This document shows, one piece after another, positions 1 through 39,533 of a stretch of 46,470 nucleotides of DNA. Positions within the stretch are counted from its first letter, which is position 1, and each line of letters opens with the position of its first letter. Origin of the DNA: Bacteroidia bacterium (lineage in GTDB: Bacteria; Bacteroidota; Bacteroidia; UBA10329); the NCBI GenBank assembly GCA_047614525.1, contig JBLHEU010000002.1, positions 1-46,470 on the forward strand, read 5' to 3'. Both the position numbers and the translations under genes were made by a program. A model generated the notes under the pieces. That model had not been told where the DNA came from and ran no database searches. It saw only the letters and a program-made list of their open reading frames with translations.

Positions 1-973
1 GCTTGTTGGAGATGACGGAACCAAGCAACGAACCTGCCTCATCAATCAAAGCTCGTCCTGTCTCCAGGATCAGCAATGGCAATTCATCTTCTACAAATCC
101 AGCATTCATTATGGCTGTAGAAATTGCTTCTGCGTAGTCGTCAAACGTTGGAGAAGTGTCGGATCCGGAAAGAAATGATCCTTTCAGCGTATTAGACGAA
201 GCGAAACCACCCCCCATATCGATGTACTGAATCTTCTTGTCGTACTTTTTCTGAATGCTTAGCGCCAATTCTGAAAGCTTACTTGCCGCAACTCCGTAGG
301 CGTTTGCAGTAAGCATAAACGTTCCTATGTGACTGTGCAGTCCAACCAAATCCATTTTATCGGCAAGAACAATCTTGTTGATGGCATCCCAAGCTTGACC
401 GTTCTCGTAGTTAAATCCGAAGCGATCCCACATTGGGTAAATACCCGTGTCCATGTTTATTCTGATGGCCACTTTCGGACGAATTTCTGTTTCTTCGCAT
501 AACTCGGTTAGTGTGTAAAGTTCATCCAAGTGATCGATGTGAATTAGCGAGTCATTCTCCATCGCTAGCTTCAATTCTTCTACCGTTTTATCCGGACCAT
601 TGAAAATTATTTTTGACCCGGGAACACCATTTTTCAACGCTTTTTGGTACTCAAAACCTGACACAACTTCAGCCCATGAGCCCATGCGGTGATAAACGTT
701 GCAAACCGCGCTTATGTAGTTGGTTTTATAGCTCCACGCAAACTGAACTTTTGGGTAACGTGTGTTAAACGCGCGTACCGCTGACATGTATGTTTCTTCA
801 ATTTTTCGTTCAGAAATAACGAAAAGTGGAGAACCATATTCTTGCATCAAATCGCTAACGCCATTATCCTCAATATGTGTAACTGGCTCATACTCCGTTC
901 GTGTTCCGAACTTATTCATCACACCCGTATTCAGTTTACGGATTATCGGTCTTTCATATCTCTGCTTGTCCAT
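1..973 (-). CDS. Fold-type III PLP-dependent decarboxylase (Orn/DAP/Arg decarboxylase family); 3' end runs off the window
   Basis: Absent from the ORF track because it is open at the window edge. My minus-strand translation from the ATG at 973 reads MDKQRYERPIIRKLNTGVMNKFGT...RYPKVQFAWSYKTNY (Lys in the usual PLP-lysine context)...DLVGLHSHIGTF...KIQYIDMGGGFASS...ILETGRALIDEAGSLLG. The order of these motifs is typical of the family. Confidence 0.75.
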   Translation of the reverse strand, partial: MDKQRYERPIIRKLNTGVMNKFGTRTEYEPVTHIEDNGVSDLMQEYGSPLFVISERKIEETYMSAVRAFNTRYPKVQFAWSYKTNYISAVCNVYHRMGSWAEVVSGFEYQKALKNGVPGSKIIFNGPDKTVEELKLAMENDSLIHIDHLDELYTLTELCEETEIRPKVAIRINMDTGIYPMWDRFGFNYENGQAWDAINKIVLADKMDLVGLHSHIGTFMLTANAYGVAASKLSELALSIQKKYDKKIQYIDMGGGFASSNTLKGSFLSGSDTSPTFDDYAEAISTAIMNAGFVEDELPLLILETGRALIDEAGSLLGSVISNK

Positions 974-1017
974 GTTATTAAGCTTAAAGTCGCAAGTCAC
1001 AAGCGACAAGTTCATAC

Positions 1018-1374
1018 TTAATCAGTTTTTATTGAGCGTTTTAAGCCACTCAGCATTTTCTGAATTTCTTGTGTATTCAACACTAAATCTGCTTGCGTTT
1101 CCGCTAAAACAGGATTGGTTCGACCTAAAATCATCAATTGAGTTTCAAGTTCAAAAGCTGAGCCCATTGCGATATCCAAAAATCGAGCGAATTCCTTGTC
1201 TGTTCCTCTACCTGCACCTTCCGCGATATTGGAAGGAATAGAAACAGCAGACCTGCTTATTTGGGAACCCAACGATATTTTTTCACTCATATCCATTTTA
1301 CCAACTATTTGAAACACATTTTCAACTAAATCCATTGACTTCTGCCAAACAATCAACTTCTTAAAATCCTTCAT
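1018..1374 (-). CDS. Four-helix-bundle protein (23S rRNA intervening-sequence protein / Avd-like family)
   Basis: 118 aa. FKKLIVWQKSMDLV...LGSQISRSAVSIPSNIAEGAGRGTDKEFARFLDIAMGSAFELETQL is the signature of this family (IxEG...kef..fL.iA.GS..E). Confidence 0.85.
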   Translation of the reverse strand: MKDFKKLIVWQKSMDLVENVFQIVGKMDMSEKISLGSQISRSAVSIPSNIAEGAGRGTDKEFARFLDIAMGSAFELETQLMILGRTNPVLAETQADLVLNTQEIQKMLSGLKRSIKTD

Positions 1375-1378
1375 TTCT

Positions 1379-1408
1379 CTTGTAGCTTTCTACTTGAAAC
1401 TTGTAGCT
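1379..1408. repeat. Two direct copies of CTTGTAGCT (1379..1387 and 1400..1408) between the four-helix-bundle gene start and the ATP-grasp stop codon
   Basis: Read directly from the sequence. The second copy overlaps the ATP-grasp stop codon. The opposite flank (999..1010) carries two ACAAG (the reverse complement of CTTGT) inside a small gtcgc/gcgac hairpin at 989..1007. Confidence 0.6.
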
Positions 1409-2478
1409 CAAGAAGCTTTTTTCTTCCTCGGCCCAAGCTCACCGGTTGTGGAGATTTCTTCAAACTCCTTCATGTCCACAATCATATCCCAAGAATACCT
1501 GATAAACATTTTACCCACTTCATATTCGGTGTATTGCGGAACCTTCTCCCCCATTCCAATCTTAACTGCAGCTTCTGGTAAATTTTGTCCGCAACCAACC
1601 GCTAGATATACCCAAGCAGGGAACCGTGGATTGATCTCGAGTAGATAATACTCGTCATCGCTGGTTTTGATGTATTCCAGCTCCATTCCGCCTTTCCATT
1701 TACTTTCCTTAATCAGCTTTTCTGCTTCGTCTAGCAAACCTTGGTCGTCTATACTTACACCTGCCCAAGCTTTTCCTTTATCGGTGATGTATTGCTTTCG
1801 CATTGGCACCATTCCAACCGTGTTTCCATCTCCATCCCCAAGAGCTACAATATTCACCTCCGTTCCGTAAACGAATTCCTGAATTACAATTGGCAAACCC
1901 CACTTGGCGGCCAACTTGTTGAAGTGTGCTTCAACCTGACCTTTATTGTAAGCGATGTGAGCATCGTAAAACTGCCCTTTAACCACCATCGGGTACGTAA
2001 AATCCTGTGCCAAATCTGGAATTTCAGCAGGCGAGAAAATCATCTTGCTTTTTGGAACAGTAAGTCCGTATTTCTCTCCAAACTCTTCCAAATTAACCTT
2101 GTGTCGAGATTCGAACTGGTCCATTGTAGGAAGACAGGTTTTAATGCCAAGGTCTTTCTCCATTCTATCAGCTATCTTGATAAAATTGAACAGTTCAGCA
2201 TCAAAATTCGGGAACAAGAAATCGATATTCTCTAAAGAGTTGATGTATGCCATTCGACCATAAATCACTTCCGTTCCAGATTTCGGAAACGGAATTTGAT
2301 AAACGTGATCCACCATTTCGTGCATGTAAATGCCCGGCTCAAGCGTTTCGTAGCTCAAACCAATAACTCTTACGTCATAATCTTCGCTATCGCGGAGCGC
2401 CCTAATTACAGGCATTCCTGGCCCTGGACTATCGATGTTATTCAGCCCTGTAACGGCTATTGTTAGTTGCTTTTTCAT
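1408..2478 (-). CDS. ATP-grasp family carboxylate-amine ligase
   Basis: 356 aa. Layout is a pre-ATP-grasp domain, then YPMVVKGQFYDAH, then IVIQEFVYGTEVNIV, then ELEYIKT...YYLLEINPRFPAW (the E-x-N Mg/ATP motif). Confidence 0.85.
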   Translation of the reverse strand: MKKQLTIAVTGLNNIDSPGPGMPVIRALRDSEDYDVRVIGLSYETLEPGIYMHEMVDHVYQIPFPKSGTEVIYGRMAYINSLENIDFLFPNFDAELFNFIKIADRMEKDLGIKTCLPTMDQFESRHKVNLEEFGEKYGLTVPKSKMIFSPAEIPDLAQDFTYPMVVKGQFYDAHIAYNKGQVEAHFNKLAAKWGLPIVIQEFVYGTEVNIVALGDGDGNTVGMVPMRKQYITDKGKAWAGVSIDDQGLLDEAEKLIKESKWKGGMELEYIKTSDDEYYLLEINPRFPAWVYLAVGCGQNLPEAAVKIGMGEKVPQYTEYEVGKMFIRYSWDMIVDMKEFEEISTTGELGPRKKKAS

Positions 2479-2481
2479 GAC

Positions 2482-2727
2482 TTACGCGTCTAAGAGTTTG
2501 AATTGCCCGAGCATTTTCAGGAAATCGTAATAGTCCTTGTCTAAAGTTTCTTCATCTATATCATACCAAGCGCGAATGGTATTTTTAATATCCATTTCGC
2601 TCTTACCATCCTTCATCAACTTAAGAATCTCGGTTCCAACATTATTAAGAGAAAAGGAATCGCCACTGGTTGGATTGAATACAAACCCCGACTCGCTAAC
2701 TGCTATGTTTTTCTTAAGTGCTATCAT
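2482..2727 (-). CDS. PqqD-family (RRE-type) small chaperone-like protein
   Basis: 81 aa. FSLNNVGTEILKLMKDGKSEMDIKNTIRAWYDIDEETLDKDYYDFLKMLGQFKLL fits the PqqD pattern (lN.tg..iw.l.dG..s..ei...l...y.....e.l..Dv..Fl..L...gll). Only 3 nt separate its stop from the ATP-grasp start. Confidence 0.75.
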   Translation of the reverse strand: MIALKKNIAVSESGFVFNPTSGDSFSLNNVGTEILKLMKDGKSEMDIKNTIRAWYDIDEETLDKDYYDFLKMLGQFKLLDA

Positions 2728-2823: not shown

Positions 2824-3414
2824 TCATTTCACCACTAATTCTAACAGTTGATCCAATGGAATTCTAGCCCCACCTTTTCCATCCTTAAATTGCTTTGGCG
2901 TTACGGACGTTACTTGCTTAAACTGGTTACTCAAATACTGAACGCTGCTGTATCCCATCTGGTAAGATATCTCACTCAAAGTCAGGTTTTTATAGCTAAG
3001 TAGTTCTTTCACTCGTTCAATCTTTAAAAGGATGATGTATTTCTCTAGTGTTGTTCCTGTTTGATCAGAGAAAATTCTGCTCAATTGATGATACGGCATT
3101 CCAGTTCTTTCGCTCAGGTGATCAGAATTTCTAATCAAAGAGTTAGCATTGTTCCCATGATAGAACAACTCAATTGAAGCCGCCTTAATCATTTCAACAT
3201 GTTGCTGACCATCATCCTCAACCAGTGCAAAACCAATAGAGGGCAGCGCATCAATAAGCTGCGCTAATTGTTGCTCATCCTCATAACCTACAACTGCGCG
3301 GCCTAACGAAATGCGCTCACGCTCAATCATATCCAACTGCTTCATCATTTGCCGAATGGCTACGATGCAACGGCTGCTTACCATGTTGCGTATGTAGATT
3401 TCGGCAGTTTTCAT
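2824..3414 (-). CDS. AraC-family transcriptional regulator (small N-terminal HMA-like domain plus AraC HTH)
   Basis: 196 aa. The C-terminus LTLSEISYQMGYSSVQYLSNQFKQVTSVTPKQF is an AraC-type HTH. The N-terminal IYIRNMVSSRCIVAI resembles the MVCxRC domain of small Bacteroidota AraC regulators. Confidence 0.85.
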   Translation of the reverse strand: MKTAEIYIRNMVSSRCIVAIRQMMKQLDMIERERISLGRAVVGYEDEQQLAQLIDALPSIGFALVEDDGQQHVEMIKAASIELFYHGNNANSLIRNSDHLSERTGMPYHQLSRIFSDQTGTTLEKYIILLKIERVKELLSYKNLTLSEISYQMGYSSVQYLSNQFKQVTSVTPKQFKDGKGGARIPLDQLLELVVK

Positions 3415-3826: not shown

Positions 3827-5389
3827 TTAGATTGTATTGATAGACTTGAATTCGGTTAATACCCAACTCCCCTCTTGATGGATAATGGAACCTAATTCAT
3901 CAACAAACTGACACGTTTCTAAATTATCCAAACGGTAATCAATGTGTTTTCTTACACCCCGATAATTACGAGTATGAAATTTATCGACTGCGGCTTTCCG
4001 AGCATCAATTCCTTCTAGATTTTCGATTGAAACACCGTAAATTTCCATGTAATCGTCATACCAAGGCATCATAAAAAATGGCTCATGTATTATGGCCTGA
4101 AAATGAATTGGAACAGACCGTTTTGCTTGACACGGAAACAAATTATTATCTGGAGATATAAGCACAGAAACATCTAAATCGGTGTTTTTTTCAATCCAGA
4201 AATGCATGTTTTCTAAATCTGAATAAACTCGGTTACCAACCATGTATTTATGCTGATAAGCCTCAGGTAAAAACTTTGAGTTTGTAATGGAAAAAAGTAA
4301 ACAGATAGAAAGGAAAAAGGAAGAAGGGAAAAGGTGTTTTCGAAGTTGAGTGAGTGGTATAAATCCGCTGAGAAACTGGCCCACAAATCCAGCAATCATT
4401 ATTGAGCTAAACGCCCCAATCCAAACAGTGATTTTAAACCACTGAACTTTTCCTAATTGGTGAATATTCAAATGCTCCAATCCAACCCAATAAACCAACA
4501 TTCCGAGTAGACCAAAACCGACTAACCCTGGGTAAAATTCCTTGTCGTTTGGTTTCACCAAGAAGTAGGAAATCAAGCCAAGCACAAGTAAACCACCAAA
4601 CTTAATGTAATGTGTGGTTGGGAAAAGACTGGGTAAATAATGATGATGATTTCTGAAGCGATAGAGAATCTCATAGTACAGTTCTTTATCAAACAGAACA
4701 CCTTCTGCGAACTGCCGAGAAAAAACAGGAACAAGAATGAACATTGCAATTGCTAGAAAGGAAGCAATCAAAGACACCGTTAACTTCAAATTTCTCTTGA
4801 CTAATAATTCTATCCCGGTAAGAATGAGAAATAACTGCAACCCTACTAATGGTTGAAAAAGAGCAGCTATACCCAGAATTATTCCCGCAAAAACCATTCT
4901 TGACCTTACAAATTGAAGTAAGGCAAATGCTGAAATACTCTTTGCCACGGTGCTTGAAATAAAGCTTCCGTACATAACGTGATTCCCGCCTACAGTAAAT
5001 CCGTAGAAAACAATAATAGCAAAAACAGGTGCCAGTAAAACAGACCACCGATTAGCAAAAAGCTTCTCGGCAATTCGTGCAAACGAATAAGCGATTAAGG
5101 CAATACAAAGAAATGTGAGCACAAATAAGCCCCATTCTAAACCAATCGTTTTAGAAACGACCAAGACAAAATGCTCATAGTAATAACGAACTGTAAAGAT
5201 GGAATTGGTCGCGTTTACGAAGTAATCGACTGGGTATAATTCAGCATCTAAAAGCTGATAGATTTGCGGTAAATGCTCCGCCTGATCGTTGGTGTTAAAT
5301 TGATAACCTCGAACCAATAAGAACAGAGCAGCAACAAAACAGGCATACCCTAATAATGGTAAAGAAGTTCCGAAAGGGCGTTGACTCAT
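3827..5389 (-). CDS. Polytopic integral membrane protein of unknown function
   Basis: 520 aa with more than 10 hydrophobic helices and a soluble C-terminal domain of about 130 aa. I recognise no catalytic motif. Confidence 0.7.
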   Translation of the reverse strand: MSQRPFGTSLPLLGYACFVAALFLLVRGYQFNTNDQAEHLPQIYQLLDAELYPVDYFVNATNSIFTVRYYYEHFVLVVSKTIGLEWGLFVLTFLCIALIAYSFARIAEKLFANRWSVLLAPVFAIIVFYGFTVGGNHVMYGSFISSTVAKSISAFALLQFVRSRMVFAGIILGIAALFQPLVGLQLFLILTGIELLVKRNLKLTVSLIASFLAIAMFILVPVFSRQFAEGVLFDKELYYEILYRFRNHHHYLPSLFPTTHYIKFGGLLVLGLISYFLVKPNDKEFYPGLVGFGLLGMLVYWVGLEHLNIHQLGKVQWFKITVWIGAFSSIMIAGFVGQFLSGFIPLTQLRKHLFPSSFFLSICLLFSITNSKFLPEAYQHKYMVGNRVYSDLENMHFWIEKNTDLDVSVLISPDNNLFPCQAKRSVPIHFQAIIHEPFFMMPWYDDYMEIYGVSIENLEGIDARKAAVDKFHTRNYRGVRKHIDYRLDNLETCQFVDELGSIIHQEGSWVLTEFKSINTI

Positions 5390-8628: not shown

Positions 8629-8809
8629 GGCCGTAAGGTAATATGCATTGCTGAATTGATTACAGCGATTGGGATTTAGAGTGTCATTATCTGGATGCTT
8701 CAATGTTTTTAATTAAGGCAGCCGAACCCCGTTACTTGATTCAAACAGACAGTTAATAAATAGCCAATTATGGCTATTGCCTGCAAACAAGTGCTTTCTT
8801 AAATTTAAC

Positions 8810-9025
8810 ATGATGCATTACGGAGAGAGAATCAAATTATCTAAACGAGAAATAGAAGTTCTCCTTCCAGTTGCTTCAGGCAAACGAAGCATAGATATTG
8901 GAGATCTGCTTAGAATAAGCAAGCATACGGTAGATAACCATCGCAAGAATATGCTGCGTAAAACGGGCACTTCTGGCAGCATGCAACTGGTGGCTTGGGC
9001 TACTAAAGAAGGGCTATTAGTATGA
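8810..9025 (+). CDS. Stand-alone LuxR/GerE-type HTH protein
   Basis: LSKREIEVLLPVASGKRSIDIGDLLRISKHTVDNHRKNMLRKTG is a GerE HTH. The ATG at 8810 is preferred over the TTG at 8777. No receiver or ligand domain is present. Confidence 0.7.
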   Translation: MMHYGERIKLSKREIEVLLPVASGKRSIDIGDLLRISKHTVDNHRKNMLRKTGTSGSMQLVAWATKEGLLV

Positions 9026-9049
9026 TTAGCACATGGGTTTTGGATTCCT

Positions 9050-9196
9050 ATGGCAGCAAACTCTTCTCTTGAAGCAGTGAATAATCGATACTTTTCAATG
9101 AAAAACGAAGACCCAATAATTAAACTGCTGGCTATGATTTTGGCAGCCATCGCAACCGTAGCCATTATGTACTGGTTTAGCGGACCTAGTAATTAA
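9050..9196 (+). CDS. Possible 48-aa single-pass membrane peptide
   Basis: Hand-found ORF MAANSSLEAVNNRYFSMKNEDPIIKLLAMILAAIATVAIMYWFSGPSN, starting 24 nt after the LuxR-type gene. It has one C-terminal TM helix and no homology evidence. Confidence 0.25.
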   Translation: MAANSSLEAVNNRYFSMKNEDPIIKLLAMILAAIATVAIMYWFSGPSN

Positions 9197-9231
9197 GGCG
9201 TTCGCTTATTCAAGCACTCGTTTTTGATTTT

Positions 9232-10203
9232 CTAAGCCGCTAAAATATCGGCAAGCTTCAAGAAATCTTTATTCACCTTATCATGATGCTTTATAGCCTG
9301 CTCAAATGGAGTGTAGCACACTTCATTATTAACTATGCCAACCATAACCGATTGTTTGCCTTGAAGCAAAGCAGTTACCGCTTCATTGCCCAATTGGGAG
9401 GCTAGCATGCGGTCTAAAGCAGAAGGATTCCCTCCGCGTTGTTGATGACCAAGAATAGAAACTCGCGTATCGTAATGCGGCAAAGCTTTTACAACCTGTT
9501 CAGCTATTTTATACGCACCACCTGCATCATCGCCCTCGGCAACCATAATAATGCTGCTGCTTTTCTTTCTGGTATATGCAGCGGCTAGTTTCTCTATTAG
9601 CTGCTCTAAATCTGTATGCACTTCGGGAATTAGAATGGCCGCTGCTCCTACTCCAATACCCGAACGCAATGCTATAAGCCCAGCATCTTTTCCCATTACT
9701 TCCACAAAAAATAATCTGTCGTGAGATGCAGCCGTGTCTTTAATCTTATCTACCGCTTCTAGCACATTATTTAAAGCGGTGTCGTATCCAATGGTATAAT
9801 CGGTGCCCATTAAATCGTTGTCGATTGTTCCTGGTAAGCCGATGAATGGAATATTGAACTCTTCGGTAAATACTTTGGCACCAGCAAAAGTTCCATCTCC
9901 GCCAATTGCCACAACGCCTTCAATTCCGTGCTGCTTTAGGTTATCAAACGCCTTTTGTCTACCTGCCTTTGTAAAAAACTCTTTGCTGCGCGAAGATTTC
10001 AGAATCGTTCCTCCACGCTGTAGAATGTTCCCTACATCGTCAGAATCAAGCTGCTTAATTTGGTTTTCAATCATGCCTTGATAACCGTGCATAATGCCAT
10101 ATACCGTTAAACCATGATGCAAACAGGTTCTAACCACTGCTCGGATACATGCATTCATTCCAGGTGAATCTCCTCCGCTAGTAAAAACTGCAATAGATTT
10201 CAT
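9232..10203 (-). CDS. pfkA: ATP-dependent 6-phosphofructokinase
   Basis: IAVFTSGGDSPGMNACIRAVVR, AIGGDGTF, GLPGTIDND and MGKDAG/GHQQRGG motifs in the canonical order; 323 aa. Confidence 0.93.
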   Translation of the reverse strand: MKSIAVFTSGGDSPGMNACIRAVVRTCLHHGLTVYGIMHGYQGMIENQIKQLDSDDVGNILQRGGTILKSSRSKEFFTKAGRQKAFDNLKQHGIEGVVAIGGDGTFAGAKVFTEEFNIPFIGLPGTIDNDLMGTDYTIGYDTALNNVLEAVDKIKDTAASHDRLFFVEVMGKDAGLIALRSGIGVGAAAILIPEVHTDLEQLIEKLAAAYTRKKSSSIIMVAEGDDAGGAYKIAEQVVKALPHYDTRVSILGHQQRGGNPSALDRMLASQLGNEAVTALLQGKQSVMVGIVNNEVCYTPFEQAIKHHDKVNKDFLKLADILAA

Positions 10204-15768: not shown

Positions 15769-15858
<90 letters not shown>

Positions 15859-15917
15859 CAAGATATTGGGATGGTTTCCCAGATGCAATTGCAAGCATTG
15901 AAAGCCGGAAATTTTTT

Positions 15918-15992
15918 CGGGGTGTAGCGTAGCCCGGTTATCGCGCCTCGTTTGGGACGAGGAGGTCGCAGGTTCGAATCCTGCCACCCCGA
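15918..15992 (+). tRNA. tRNA-Pro (anticodon TGG)
   Basis: Acceptor cggggtg/caccccg, anticodon stem cctcg/cgagg with loop ttTGGga, T-loop gcagg-ttcgaat-cctgc. Confidence 0.9.
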
Positions 15993-15999
15993 CAAAAAA

Positions 16000-16031
16000 G
16001 GCCAACTTGGTTTACCTCGTTGGCCTTTTTT
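16000..16031 (+). terminator. Rho-independent terminator after tRNA-Pro
   Basis: ggccaac-N12-gttggcc followed by TTTTTT, with an A-run on the 5' side. Confidence 0.7.
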
Positions 16032-16064
16032 ATTACAATGTCACTTTCCCAAAAGGTGACAACC

Positions 16065-16138
16065 GGTCGCGTAGCTCAGCTGGATAGAGCATCTGCCTTC
16101 TAAGCAGACGGTCCCAGGTTCGAATCCTGGCGCGATCA
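16065..16138 (+). tRNA. tRNA-Arg (anticodon TCT)
   Basis: Acceptor ggtcgcg/cgcgatc (one G-U pair), D-loop agctcagctggatagagc, anticodon stem tctgc/gcaga with loop ctTCTaa, T-arm ccagg-ttcgaat-cctgg. Confidence 0.9.
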
Positions 16139-35959: not shown

Positions 35960-36112
35960 TGATAGAGATTGCCGCAGTCGTTCCTCCTTCGCTATGACGC
36001 GCGTTATGGTTAGTAATTTGCACCCGCGTTAGGGATTGAAGCGGCATCCTTTTGCTTTCGGCAAAAGATAAAGCGGAAAGCCCGACCCGCCAAAAAGCGG
36101 GTAACGCTCTTC
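35960..36112. repeat. GC-rich hairpin modules inside the AT-rich spacer upstream of icmF
   Basis: Seen directly: gagattgccgcagtcgttcctccttcgctatgacgcgcg; ccttttgc-tttc-ggcaaaag hairpin; cccgc-caaaaa-gcggg hairpin. They resemble short degenerate intergenic repeat modules that I recall being common in Bacteroidota genomes. That is unverified memory. Confidence 0.35.
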
Positions 36113-36170
36113 GACTTCTTTAAGTACAGGCCCAAACCTAAATCGTAAATTCGCGGATTAAGATTTGAAG

Positions 36171-39100
36171 ATGAAGGAAGCAGCGCCATACCAGCCAAAA
36201 AACAAAATCAGATTAGTAACCGCAGCCAGTCTATTTGACGGGCACGATGCGGCTATAAATATCATGCGTAGAATTATTCAGGCCACTGGCGTTGAGGTGA
36301 TTCATTTGGGACATGACCGTAGCGTAGAAGAGGTTGTGAATTGTGCCATTCAGGAGGATGTGCAGGCGATTGCGATGACGAGTTATCAGGGAGGGCACAA
36401 CGAGTATTTCAAGTACATGTGTGACCTTTTGAAGGAGAAAGGCGGTGGCCATATAAAGATTTTTGGTGGTGGTGGCGGTACAATTCTTCCTTCTGAAATG
36501 GAAGAGTTACACGCCTACGGTATCACTCGAATTTATGGGCCTGATGATGGCCGCGAGATGGGGTTGCAGGGCATGATTAATAATATGATTGAGCAATGCG
36601 ATTTCCCTACGGGGATGCATTTGAACGGTGAAGCTGGCCGATTAGACCAACGCAACTGGACTGATATTGCGAAGCTTATTTCTGCCGCTGAAAACAACTC
36701 TGAAGGAAGCAAAAAGGACATTGATGCTGTTAAGGCGTTAGCCGAAAAGTCTACCACGCCTGTACTTGGAATTACCGGAACTGGCGGTTCTGGAAAATCA
36801 TCTATGGTTGATGAATTGGTGCGCAGGTTTTTGGTTGATTTTCCAGAGAAAAATATTGCAATTGTATCTGTAGACCCTTCGAAAAGAAGAACGGGCGGAG
36901 CACTTTTGGGTGATAGAATTCGCATGAATGCAATTCGCAGTCCACGTGTTTACATGCGCTCTTTAGCCACGCGACAGAGCAACTTGGCGTTGAGCAAGCA
37001 CGTGCAAGAAGCTGTTGATATTCTAAAAGCTGCGCATTACGATTTGATTATTCTGGAGACTTCTGGAATCGGACAAAGCGATACAGAAATACTTGACCAT
37101 AGTGATGTTTCTCTTTATGTGATGACACCCGAGTTTGGTGCGGCTACACAGTTAGAGAAGATTGATATGCTTGATTTTGCGGATTTAGTTGCCATCAACA
37201 AATTTGACAAGCGTGGTGCTTTAGACGCGGTTAGAGATGTAAAAAAACAATACAGACGCAACCGACAGTTGTGGGAAATGAAGGATGAAGATATTCCTGT
37301 TTATGGGACTATCGCCAGTCAATTTAACGACCCAGGAACCAACTCGCTTTACAAAGCGCTTATGGATGAGGTGGCAGAAAAAACCAAAACTGACCTCCAC
37401 TCTACTTTTGAGATTACGGATGAGATGAGCGAGAAGATTTTCGTGATTCCACCAAACAGAACGCGTTACCTATCTGAGATTTCTGAAAGCAACCGAGGTT
37501 ATGATAAATGGGCTACAGATCAAGCAGAAGTTGCGGACAAACTATATTCCATTCAACGAACTATAGAAACGGTTTCTGAAGATGATTTGAAGAAGGTTCT
37601 TCAAGCTGAGTTCGACAAAGTAAAGTTGGATTTAGACCCTCGGAACTGGCTTATTATTGAAGGTTGGCCAGCACAAGCGCAGCGGTACAAAGACGAGTTC
37701 TACATTTTTAAAGTGCGTGATAAAGAAATTAAGATTAAGACGCATTCTGAATCGTTATCTCACTTACAAATCCCTAAAGTTGCAACCCCGAAATACAGAA
37801 ACTGGGGCGACCTTTTAAGATGGGTTTTACAGGAAAATGTACCTGGTGAATTTCCTTACACGGCTGGTATTTATCCGTTTAAACGAGAAGGCGAAGACCC
37901 TGCAAGAATGTTTGCCGGAGAAGGCGGTCCAGAACGTACCAATAGAAGATTCCATTACGTTTCCATGGGACTTCCTGCCAAGCGATTGAGCACGGCATTC
38001 GATAGCGTTACGCTTTATGGAAGCAATCCAGATCGTAGACCAGACATCTACGGAAAGGTGGGTAACTCAGGTGTTAGTATCTGCTGTTTAGATGATGCTA
38101 AAAAGCTTTATTCTGGGTTTGATTTAACCAACCCGATGACTTCGGTTTCCATGACCATTAATGGTCCTGCGCCTATGTTACTTGGCTTTTTCATGAACGC
38201 GTGCGTTGATCAGGAATGTGAGAAATACGTGATTGAAAACAAGCTTGAAAAAGAAGTTGAAAAAGTCAAAAAAGCAAAGTATGATGACCAAGGAATTGCT
38301 CGTCCAGCATACCAAGGAGAATTGCCGGAAGGCAACAACGGTTTGGGGCTTATGCTACTTGGCGTTACGGGTGATGAAGTGCTTCCTGCAGATGTTTACG
38401 CTAAGATTAAAACAGATGCATTAAGCAAAGTTCGTGGTACTGTTCAGGCTGATATTCTTAAAGAAGACCAAGCACAGAATACGTGCATTTTTAGCACAGA
38501 ATTTGCGCTTAGATTAATGGGCGATGTACAGGAGTATTTCATCGAGAAAAACGTAAGAAACTTCTACTCTGTTTCAATCTCAGGATACCATATTGCAGAA
38601 GCTGGCGCGAACCCGATTTCGCAGCTTGCTTTCACTTTGGCTAATGGATTCACGTTTGTAGAATACTACCTCAGCCGAGGAATGGACATCAACAAGTTTG
38701 GACCAAATTTGAGCTTCTTCTTTAGCAACGGTGTAGACCCAGAATACGCGGTAATTGGTCGTGTGGCACGGAAAATTTGGTCTAAGGCCATGAAGATGAA
38801 ATATGGTGCTGACCCAAGAGCGCAAATGCTCAAGTATCATATTCAAACAAGCGGTAGAAGCTTGCATGCGCAGGAGATTGATTTCAACGATATACGAACT
38901 ACGCTACAGGCACTTTACGCTATTTACGATAACTGTAATTCGTTACACACCAATGCGTATGACGAAGCCATTACTACGCCTACCGAGGAAAGCGTAAGAA
39001 GAGCAATGGCTATTCAGCTTATCATCAATAAAGAGCTTGGTTTGGCTAAGAATGAGAACCCAATTCAGGGAGCTTTCATTATTGAAGAACTGACTGACTT

Positions 39101-39533
39101 AGTTGAAGAAGCTGTGCTTACCGAATTTGACAGATTAACTGAGCGTGGTGGCGTTTTGGGTGCTATGGAAACCATGTACCAACGAAGCAAGATTCAGGAA
39201 GAAAGTCTGTATTACGAAACGTTGAAACACACAGGAGAATTCCCAATTATTGGGGTGAACACTTTCCTAAGTAGTCAAGGCTCTCCAACCATTTTACCTA
39301 AAGAGGTTATCCGGTCTACATCAGAAGAAAAAGAGTATCAGATTGAGATGCTCGGAAACCTCCACAAAGGCAAAGAGGAATTAGCAAATGAAGCTTTAGC
39401 TCGTTTACAGAAAACCGCTGTTCAGAATGAGAACATGTTTGAAGAAATGATGGAAGCCGCCAAGCATTGTTCTCTCGGACAAATTAGCAACGCGCTGTTT
39501 GAAGTTGGAGGGCAGTACCGAAGAAATATGTAA
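36171..39533 (+). CDS. icmF: Fused isobutyryl-CoA mutase (B12-binding domain, MeaB-like GTPase and mutase barrel)
   Basis: N-terminal B12 motif [14 protein letters not shown] (DxHxxG), central P-loop [12 protein letters not shown] with NKFD, and a C-terminal methylmalonyl/isobutyryl-CoA mutase barrel of about 550 aa. The ATG at 36171 is preferred over the TTG at 36165. Confidence 0.9.

Follow-up and report, generated by a model that had tools for sequence, protein, structure and literature searches.

A PqqD-type recognition element, an ATP-grasp ligase and a PLP decarboxylase head a conserved bacterial module in which the tail of the decarboxylase may be the recognized peptide

Three minus-strand genes at the left end of a 46,470-nt stretch of DNA from a Bacteroidia bacterium (assembly GCA_047614525.1, contig JBLHEU010000002.1, positions 1 to 46,470; the whole stretch is called the window below) encode a stand-alone PqqD-type recognition element (RRE) for peptides that are made on ribosomes and modified after translation (RiPPs), an ATP-grasp ligase and a fold-type III pyridoxal-phosphate (PLP) decarboxylase. 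It is almost certain that this trio forms the front, cytoplasmic core of a conserved module and that its members are functionally linked. The PqqD-type protein, hereafter PqqD, probably binds a 33-residue tail at the N terminus of the decarboxylase. The best explanation of the module, to which an even chance is given, is that PqqD reads this tail of a pathway enzyme, not a separate precursor, and that the tail, with the enzyme that bears it, would thereby be brought to the ATP-grasp ligase. The original prediction, made from the letters of the window, had named the trio and a cassette inserted in it; open reading frames (ORFs) and Pfam and NCBIfam profiles confirm the identities, coordinates and minus strand of all four genes (Table 1).

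Functional linkage of the trio is assigned because of its synteny across phyla and the existence of natural fusion proteins. Twelve genome loci were compared, from Flavobacteriales, Bacteroidales, Lentimicrobiaceae, Saccharicrinis and Carboxylicivirga. Their common order is PqqD, ATP-grasp ligase, a variable insert, decarboxylase, a protein of ~730 aa, a protein of ~420–460 aa and a tetratricopeptide repeat (TPR) protein of ~205 aa, the last two with signal peptides. The trio order is identical in all 11 genome loci that reach upstream of the ATP-grasp gene. A further sample of 80 metagenome loci gives the same picture: PqqD lies immediately 5′ of the ATP-grasp gene in 67 of the 71 loci with enough upstream sequence, the decarboxylase is the next gene 3′, without any insert, in 64 of 64, and a gene for a urea-transporter (UT) domain fused to an M23 peptidase domain follows the decarboxylase in 36 of 38. 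Because the order recurs in metagenome and genome loci alike, the arrangement is not due to chance. Synteny in related genomes, the point on which the original prediction had staked the trio, thus holds across phyla when gene neighbourhoods are compared. The leftward extension that it had called for, done through identical contigs and related loci, leads to the UT–M23 gene and then to genes for periplasmic TPR and outer-membrane proteins.

Among 212 relatives of the ATP-grasp ligase found at E ≤ 1e-30 in a search of 1.84 billion representative proteins, one natural fusion joins PqqD to the ATP-grasp ligase (P0256) and another joins the ATP-grasp ligase to the decarboxylase (P0204). Many of these relatives are tandem double ATP-grasp proteins of ~710 aa, with catalytic residues intact in both halves in most. 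On distant contigs, of 28–70% G+C, the genes begin with a TPR protein and continue with PqqD, one or two ATP-grasp proteins and the decarboxylase up to a UT fusion with SIR2, SIR2 plus GNAT or M23; the doubled-ligase type is assigned by its source records to Methylomirabilota (Rokubacteria), Nitrospinota and Terriglobales. From this spread over phyla and base compositions it follows that the module is ancient or widely transferred. Three loci with distant ATP-grasp paralogues and without PqqD or decarboxylase (L018 from Priestia, L025 and L026) were set aside. No description of the module was found in the literature, in a search that left most subscription-journal papers outside, so that an earlier description is possible. 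PADLOC models gave no significant match for PqqD, the ATP-grasp ligase, the decarboxylase or UT–M23, and marginal SIR2 matches only for UT–SIR2; a reading as anti-phage defence was dropped for want of significant PADLOC support.

PqqD matches Pfam PF05402 with 45.5 bits against a cut-off of 23.4, over profile positions 4–66 of 67, and its assignment to the PqqD/RRE family stands. Among NCBIfam models it fits the lasso PqqD chaperone best, yet the lasso models, with cut-offs of 70 and 80 bits, give it 31 and 24 bits, and the PQQ_PqqD model TIGR03859 gives 17 bits against 46. In the solved complex of LppB with its leader, D70 forms a hydrogen bond with the leader Tyr, the leader bends at its Pro in a kink fixed by N33, and F74 packs against the same Pro (PMC13381572); the leader motif of discrete lasso-type RREs is [Y/W]xxPx[L/V/I/F/A] (PMC13381572). 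The corresponding residues of PqqD are N28, D65 and F69, present in 81, 58 and 78 of 81 PqqD sequences, respectively. Their spacing of 37 and 4 residues equals that of N33, D70 and F74 in LppB, with the Asn at the end of β3 and the Asp and Phe on α3.

A matching leader-like motif stands on the decarboxylase. In 90 sequences, the tail has the consensus K-x-x-[Y/F]-E-R-P-x-I ... G ... N-K-F-G, with Y/F in 89, E in 86, R in 80, P in 88, I in 85 and a Lys 15 residues after the Tyr (Y+15) in 87. The segment [Y/F]-E-R-P-x-I fits the RRE leader motif, and no Protein Data Bank (PDB) chain of the diaminopimelate (DAP)-decarboxylase family aligns to residues 1–33 of the decarboxylase. The YxxPxI motif recurs in the SIR2-type loci, which are distant, and in the P0204 fusion, where it stands in the linker; it persists in loci of 28–70% G+C.

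Recognition of this tail by PqqD is suggested by covariation, followed in 81 loci, in each of which the PqqD sequence was paired with that of the decarboxylase. A tail Tyr is accompanied by Asp65 in PqqD in 58 of 62 cases (the others have His, three times, or Asn, once). A tail Phe is never accompanied by it (0 of 19); Tyr (12), Ser (4), Asn, Glu and Thr (one each) take its place. Fisher's exact test gives 6e-15 for this association, in sequences that are related by descent. The mutual information with the Tyr/Phe state is 0.60 bits for PqqD position 65 and 0.15 bits for the next best of the 81 positions. In a blind scan of 81 × 30 = 2,430 pairs with average product correction, PqqD position 65 and the tail Tyr form the top pair (0.62 versus 0.40). 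Because position 65 stands far above the other positions and pairs in both controls, the signal is specific and no general signature of a clade. The covarying pair is the contact predicted from the solved RRE–leader complexes, which makes it good evidence, of a computational kind, for binding of the tail by PqqD.

The original prediction had put PqqD in the place of a carrier or recognition element, with the ligase acting on a bound peptide or carrier. The identity of PqqD as an RRE holds; a separate ligand does not, as ~100 loci, which come from several phyla, share no gene for such a peptide or carrier, and the decarboxylase tail is indicated instead. Neither a listing of ORFs in the gaps of the loci nor tblastx of all intergenic regions revealed a conserved small ORF, and a search targeted at YxxP in ORFs of 10–80 aa gave no conserved short YxxP ORF, a trans-encoded peptide lying outside its scope. 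These results bear on a classical RiPP or scaffold-peptide pathway of the pearlin kind, in which a trans-encoded peptide would bind PqqD, be extended and decarboxylated, and be released by the M23 domain. Such a pathway would use PqqD as the bona fide RRE that it is and would give a task to the peptidase found inside the module in Bacteroidota, and precursors of 21–22 aa with YxxP were overlooked before in fosfazinomycin clusters. It is nevertheless improbable, given that ~100 loci lack a conserved small ORF, with YxxP or without, that YxxPxI is conserved nowhere in the module but on the decarboxylase, where it shows covariation with the Tyr-binding residue of the RRE, and that the high conservation of the module is unlike that of typical RiPP clusters.

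Two further places for a tether were considered and rejected. The C termini of PqqD vary in length and sequence among homologues, and a carrier role of PqqD like that of LysW is ruled out by this unconserved C terminus. The ATP-grasp ligase ends, in most members, exactly at an invariant 'EFExISTxGEL'; the lineage of the window extends it with a lysine-rich GPRKKKAS (1408–1434). Self-modification at the C terminus of the ligase was discarded, since this extension means that a free C-terminal Leu is not needed.

The ATP-grasp ligase scores 38.6 bits with ATPgrasp_Ter (cut-off 29.1), is above the cut-off of ATP-grasp_3 and also matches CPSase_L_D2. It retains the catalytic residues K167, E207, E266/E268 and E281-x-N283-x-R285, the last being the magnesium-binding ExNxR. 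Members of its cluster are labelled 'carbamoyl-phosphate synthase large subunit'; NCBIfam models of the carbamoyl-phosphate synthase (CPS) kind score far under cut-off. No characterized protein is a close relative of it: searched by sequence, the PDB yields a single match, 2pn1 (E = 3e-4). An AlphaFold2 (AF2) model, with a predicted local distance difference test (pLDDT) score of 87.6, has as Foldseek neighbours biotin carboxylases, CPS, RizA and PurK, at 12–17% identity. As only generic ATP-grasp neighbours are found by sequence and by fold, no substrate can be assigned by homology. Homologues at E ≤ 1e-10 exceed 7,000, and the closest ones listed are 65–70% identical. In L025/L026 (10001–13037), an ATP-grasp paralogue of 30% identity adjoins a TPR protein of ~640 aa, without PqqD or decarboxylase; the pairing of ATP-grasp and TPR proteins thus recurs outside the module.

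The decarboxylase, whose full 452 residues were recovered from identical contigs, matches Orn_Arg_deC_N with 107 bits. Its start at 973, as originally predicted, is correct: it is the consensus start among the 120 closest homologues listed, nearly all of which have 452 aa and which are 75–80% identical. A public gene call of 466 aa (L001 11464–12864) is 14 codons longer, the extra residues lying ahead of the leader-like motif; judged by the consensus start, this call is too long. Invariant are the PLP lysine (in SYKTN), HIGT, GGGF, ExGR and the active-site Cys. The full protein scores 226 bits with the FslC model NF041039 (cut-off 500) and 211 bits with the lysA model TIGR01048 (cut-off 297.9). 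With both scores below their cut-offs, it therefore qualifies for neither family. Among PDB entries, FslC (7kh2, 191 bits) ranks above DAP decarboxylases (at most 137 bits) and BtrK (85 bits). FslC is an N-citrylornithine decarboxylase and BtrK an L-glutamyl-[BtrI] decarboxylase. In the alignment to 1twi, the 'RPAMY' and 'CES' of DAP decarboxylases are replaced by 'TSFWY' and 'CMN'; FslC has 'TISTY' and 'CMQ'. DAP is bound at its distal amino-acid end by the 'RPxxY' and 'CES' segments. That both are lost here, as in FslC, suggests a substrate with an amide-linked distal end. The AF2 model of the decarboxylase is poor (pLDDT 66.8, with ~30 in the tail), hence its confidence in the tail is uninformative, and it was not used for fold search.

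In the ~730-aa partner, an inner-membrane protein, a full-length UT domain is joined to an M23 peptidase domain, and the C-terminal region is without family match. The UT profile PF03253 matches with 184 bits over positions 4–290 of 292, and the TIGR03441 equivalog, whose cut-off is 275 bits, gives 115. The zinc and catalytic residues of M23 (H..D, HxH) are conserved; the best NCBIfam matches of this region, Pgp3, MepM and ShyA/C, are all far under their cut-offs. Elsewhere the UT domain carries SIR2, with or without GNAT, in place of M23 and at the same position, and these SIR2 domains keep the GAGxS, NVDGLH and zinc-Cys motifs. Sirtuins, the SIR2 proteins, are lysine deacylases that need NAD, and GNAT domains need acetyl-CoA. 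No transmembrane segment of the fusion lies beyond the start of the enzymatic domain. Since these cofactors are required and the fused domain follows the last transmembrane segment, the M23, SIR2 or GNAT end of the UT fusion, which would cleave amides or transfer acyl groups, would be cytoplasmic. The topology of UT proteins presumably agrees with this placement.

This placement bears on the possibility that the module modifies or recycles the cell envelope or peptidoglycan, with M23 cutting peptidoglycan peptides, the decarboxylase and ligase remodelling stem peptides and the TPR and outer-membrane proteins at work in the periplasm. In its favour, most M23 domains act as endopeptidases on peptidoglycan, the decarboxylase is a member of the DAP-decarboxylase superfamily, and TPR and β-barrel proteins are envelope components. 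However, M23 sits at the position of NAD- or acetyl-CoA-dependent domains, which would place it in the cytoplasm, it is swapped for SIR2 in most versions outside Bacteroidota, and the DAP-binding Arg and Glu-Ser pair of the decarboxylase are replaced. A role in peptidoglycan metabolism thus appears highly improbable.

For the preferred explanation, with the decarboxylase tail as ligand of PqqD, a chemical cycle can be proposed. PqqD is linked to the ATP-grasp ligase through fusion and gene neighbourhood, and to the decarboxylase tail through motif and covariation. It would therefore offer the tail, with its YxxPxI leader, to the ligase in the way in which RREs offer core peptides to tailoring enzymes. 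The ligase would join the side-chain carboxyl of an amino acid to the ε-amine of Lys21, leaving a free α-amino-acid end. Lys21 is the candidate acceptor because it is near-invariant and lies 15 residues past the Tyr, about as far as a core usually is from its leader. The decarboxylase would then strip the α-carboxyl from the tethered amino acid, like BtrK acting on BtrI-bound glutamate. A second ligation could follow and would account for the doubled ligases. Lastly, the SIR2 domain, as a lysine deacylase, or the M23 domain would hydrolyse the Nε-acyl-lysine bond near the UT-like pore, and a small amine or amide would be released. This Lys-tethered cycle, akin to that of BtrI, BtrJ and BtrK and ended by SIR2 or M23, is put forward tentatively. 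Viewed as a whole, the pathway would rest on an enzyme-borne carrier arm: the RRE would read a leader in the decarboxylase, the decarboxylase would edit its own cargo, and release would take place next to a urea-channel-like protein. Taken in its entirety, such a pathway is possible, with the chances rather against it. We infer the order of steps, the product, its export, the acceptor role of Lys21 and physical binding. With this mechanism, each conserved part in the cytoplasm has a task, and the lack of a precursor gene is explained.

Several observations weigh against this mechanism. The P0204 lineage keeps YxxPxI and PqqD without the Lys in its linker, and its partner has neither UT, SIR2 nor M23. 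Hence tethering to Lys either does not hold throughout the family or is not the mechanism. The covariation reflects few independent events, as a tree built by the unweighted pair group method with arithmetic mean gives ~4 Tyr/Phe changes and two Asp/non-Asp changes; one such event is a joint reversal to Tyr and Asp in L066, inside the Phe clade. M23 peptidases and sirtuins have other possible roles, and a urea-channel-like pore is perhaps too narrow for anything beyond very small amides or amines. The mechanism does not say which amino acid is added or what is produced, and it offers no role for the TPR and outer-membrane proteins.

The main alternative is a docking role of the tail alone, in which binding by PqqD would assemble or allosterically switch on a complex of ligase and decarboxylase and the product would be a free small molecule, as with FslA and FslC. 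The ligase would join a carboxylic acid by an amide bond to an amino acid such as ornithine or lysine, the decarboxylase would yield an N-acyl-diamine, and the UT-like protein would export or import the compound, which its fused domain would trim. Among solved structures, FslC is nearest to the decarboxylase, and it has the same substitutions in the substrate pocket. The P0204 lineage, with YxxPxI and PqqD and without the tail Lys, is as this alternative would have it, and the doubled ligases fit two amide steps around decarboxylation, as FslA acts twice. Regulators of AraC type upstream, and of ArsR type in distant loci, are common with metabolite and metallophore clusters. However, docking alone leaves unexplained why the Lys at Y+15 (87 of 90, within a G..NKFG segment) is conserved like the leader motif and why the SIR2 or M23 partner is fixed. 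In the covalent fusion of ATP-grasp and decarboxylase, moreover, PqqD and the motif should be dispensable, yet they are kept. A scaffold without tethering is a conceivable alternative, with the chances rather against it.

Comparison with characterized systems places the proposed carrier arm among known logics without identifying it with any of them. The original prediction had seen no characterized pathway in the trio, and none emerges with the rest of the operon in view, since membership tests for known pathways failed. Radical-SAM enzymes, siderophore synthetases of the NIS type and acyl carrier proteins (ACPs), which it had not seen in the window, are absent from every locus. In its way of working, the module is most like the carrier-tethered pathways of the LysW type and BtrI/BtrJ/BtrK of butirosin biosynthesis, the latter of which pairs an ATP-grasp ligase with a homologous fold-type III decarboxylase, holds its substrate on a protein and follows the order that is proposed here, of ligation, decarboxylation and renewed ligation. 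The likeness to it is confined to mechanism: in butirosin biosynthesis the tether is a thioester on an ACP, for which no gene occurs here and in place of which a Lys on an enzyme tail is proposed; here, too, an RRE would present the tether, a membrane fusion with M23 or SIR2 would release the cargo, and the ATP-grasp ligase has no detectable link to BtrJ. FslA/FslC, for rhizoferrin in Francisella, have in common with the module the T for R in 'RPxxY' and CM[NQ] for CES. They differ in that the module lacks an NIS synthetase in any locus and has an ATP-grasp ligase in the amide-forming role, whereas FslC systems lack PqqD, the UT fusion and TPR genes.

The discrete RREs of lasso and LPP systems (B1/LppB) belong to the same PF05402 family, with the same spacing of the Asn/Asp/Phe triad and the same ligand motif. 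In contrast to these, the motif stands here on a 452-aa enzyme, and B2 protease, lasso cyclase and kinase are lacking; lasso precursor, transglutaminase-like B2 protease and Asn-synthetase-like cyclase are all absent from ~100 loci. The genes of PQQ biosynthesis, PqqA, the radical-SAM PqqE, PqqB and PqqC, occur neither in the window nor in related loci. The Pfam hits of the ATP-grasp ligase include no match of the graspetide MdnB/MdnC type, and no precursor was found. LysW/LysX and pearlin systems follow the same logic of an amino acid held by an amide on a carrier, with ATP-dependent loading and release by a hydrolase. Unlike LysW, where the tether is a conserved C-terminal Glu, the candidate here is an internal Lys on an enzyme tail; the ligases of pearlin systems are tRNA-dependent LanB-like enzymes, not ATP-grasp proteins.

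In the window, the stop codon of PqqD and the start of the ATP-grasp gene are 3 nt apart, and the junction between the ATP-grasp and decarboxylase genes is occupied by a gene for a four-helix-bundle protein of the 23S rRNA intervening-sequence (IVP) kind, with 116.7 bits for 23S_rRNA_IVP (PF05635) and a match to TIGR02436. It is present in L001–L008 and L010 only and absent from L009, L011–L017 and all 64 metagenome loci; the cassette that the original prediction had called inserted is a true insertion. Because it is restricted to the nearest relatives of the window, this gene is a lineage-specific passenger, outside the module proper. It is flanked by imperfect 11-nt inverted repeats (1002–1012 and 1398–1408), which are short and possibly due to chance, as are two copies of CTTGTAGCT nearby (1379–1387 and 1400–1408). 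Some Bacteroidales have, in or beside the module, a protein of ~260 aa with a C-terminal sorting domain for type IX secretion, whose gene lies in L012 and L013 at the same junction as the IVP gene of the window. This suggests either a hot spot for insertions at the junction or, in the type IX secretion-tail protein, a lineage-specific accessory.

Table 1. Coordinates of the trio, its tail and residues of interest, and accessory genes (positions of the window unless a locus is named)
Feature	Coordinates	Strand	Remarks
Stand-alone PqqD-type RRE	2482..2727	-	81 aa; Pfam PF05402
PqqD residue N28	2644..2646	-	Kept in window PqqD
PqqD residue D65	2533..2535	-	Kept in window PqqD
PqqD residue F69	2521..2523	-	Kept in window PqqD
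ATP-grasp ligase	1408..2478	-	356 aa; ATPgrasp_Ter, ATP-grasp_3
Four-helix-bundle / 23S rRNA intervening-sequence protein (IVP) gene	1018..1374	-	118 aa; PF05635, TIGR02436
Fold-type III PLP decarboxylase	973..1	-	First 324 of 452 residues, remainder beyond window; Orn_Arg_deC_N
Decarboxylase N-terminal tail	875..973	-	33 residues, translation MDKQRYERPIIRKLNTGVMNKFGTRTEYEPVTH
Tail leader-like motif YERPII	941..958	-	Within decarboxylase N-terminal tail
Tail Lys21	911..913	-	Within decarboxylase N-terminal tail
AraC-family regulator	2824..3414	-	HTH_18 and HTH_AraC matches; weak HMA-like N-terminal match
Type IX secretion-tail protein, L011	6939-7733		
Type IX secretion-tail protein, L012	8229-9011		
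Type IX secretion-tail protein, L013	9061-9849		

Upstream of the trio, the AraC-family protein is probably the regulator of the module and a frequent accessory of it. An AraC-type orthologue lies 5′ on the same strand in five of 11 genome loci, and the whole protein, including its N-terminal domain, is found 5′ of the module in 22–23 of 58 metagenome loci. This N-terminal domain of ~65 aa shows a weak match to a metal-binding (HMA-like) fold over residues 4–62 and contains a single Cys (MVSSRC). An Rfam scan of the module detected no upstream riboswitch or other known RNA.

Other neighbours were recorded in the window and in related loci. A 520-aa polytopic membrane protein (3827–5389, minus strand), without family and with a weak DUF6798 match only, adjoins the module in the closest Flavobacteriales relatives alone. 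Farther along the window are a cluster of three tRNA genes (15769–16138, plus strand) and a Flavo-1 RNA (Rfam RF01705, 52 bits, cut-off 42) at 36018–36091 on the plus strand, just 5′ of an ORF of 1122 aa (36165–39533). In L028, a full SIR2-type module, with PqqD, a 200-aa protein, a doubled ATP-grasp protein, the decarboxylase, UT–SIR2 and a DLH hydrolase, lies between IS240-family transposase genes of the same orientation (263–958 and 8794–9489), and this arrangement may be a composite transposon carrying the module. A gene pair for an ArsR-type helix-turn-helix protein and a glyoxalase-fold protein stands beside the SIR2-type module in L019 (9991–10755) and L020 (4049–5027), two unrelated contigs of high G+C in which the pair occupies opposite sides of the module; it may be a pair of regulator and accessory.

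Collectively, the module would represent RRE-guided, carrier-tethered amino-acid chemistry with an unprecedented ligand, the tail of an enzyme, and an unprecedented membrane partner. It is found in Bacteroidota, Methylomirabilota, Nitrospinota and Acidobacteriota and constitutes a large and strongly conserved family. The fusion of a UT fold to SIR2, GNAT or M23 is a second unexplained feature, which can be tested in the context of the module. PqqD-type RREs serve as class-independent beacons for RiPP mining. If the proposed reading is true, many orphan RRE clusters may need reinterpretation, and searches for missing precursors would fail there. It would also provide the first natural RRE with its ligand on a pathway enzyme, and a new biosynthetic logic in thousands of genomes from at least four phyla, whose product may be a metabolite of wide occurrence, in the envelope or outside the cell.

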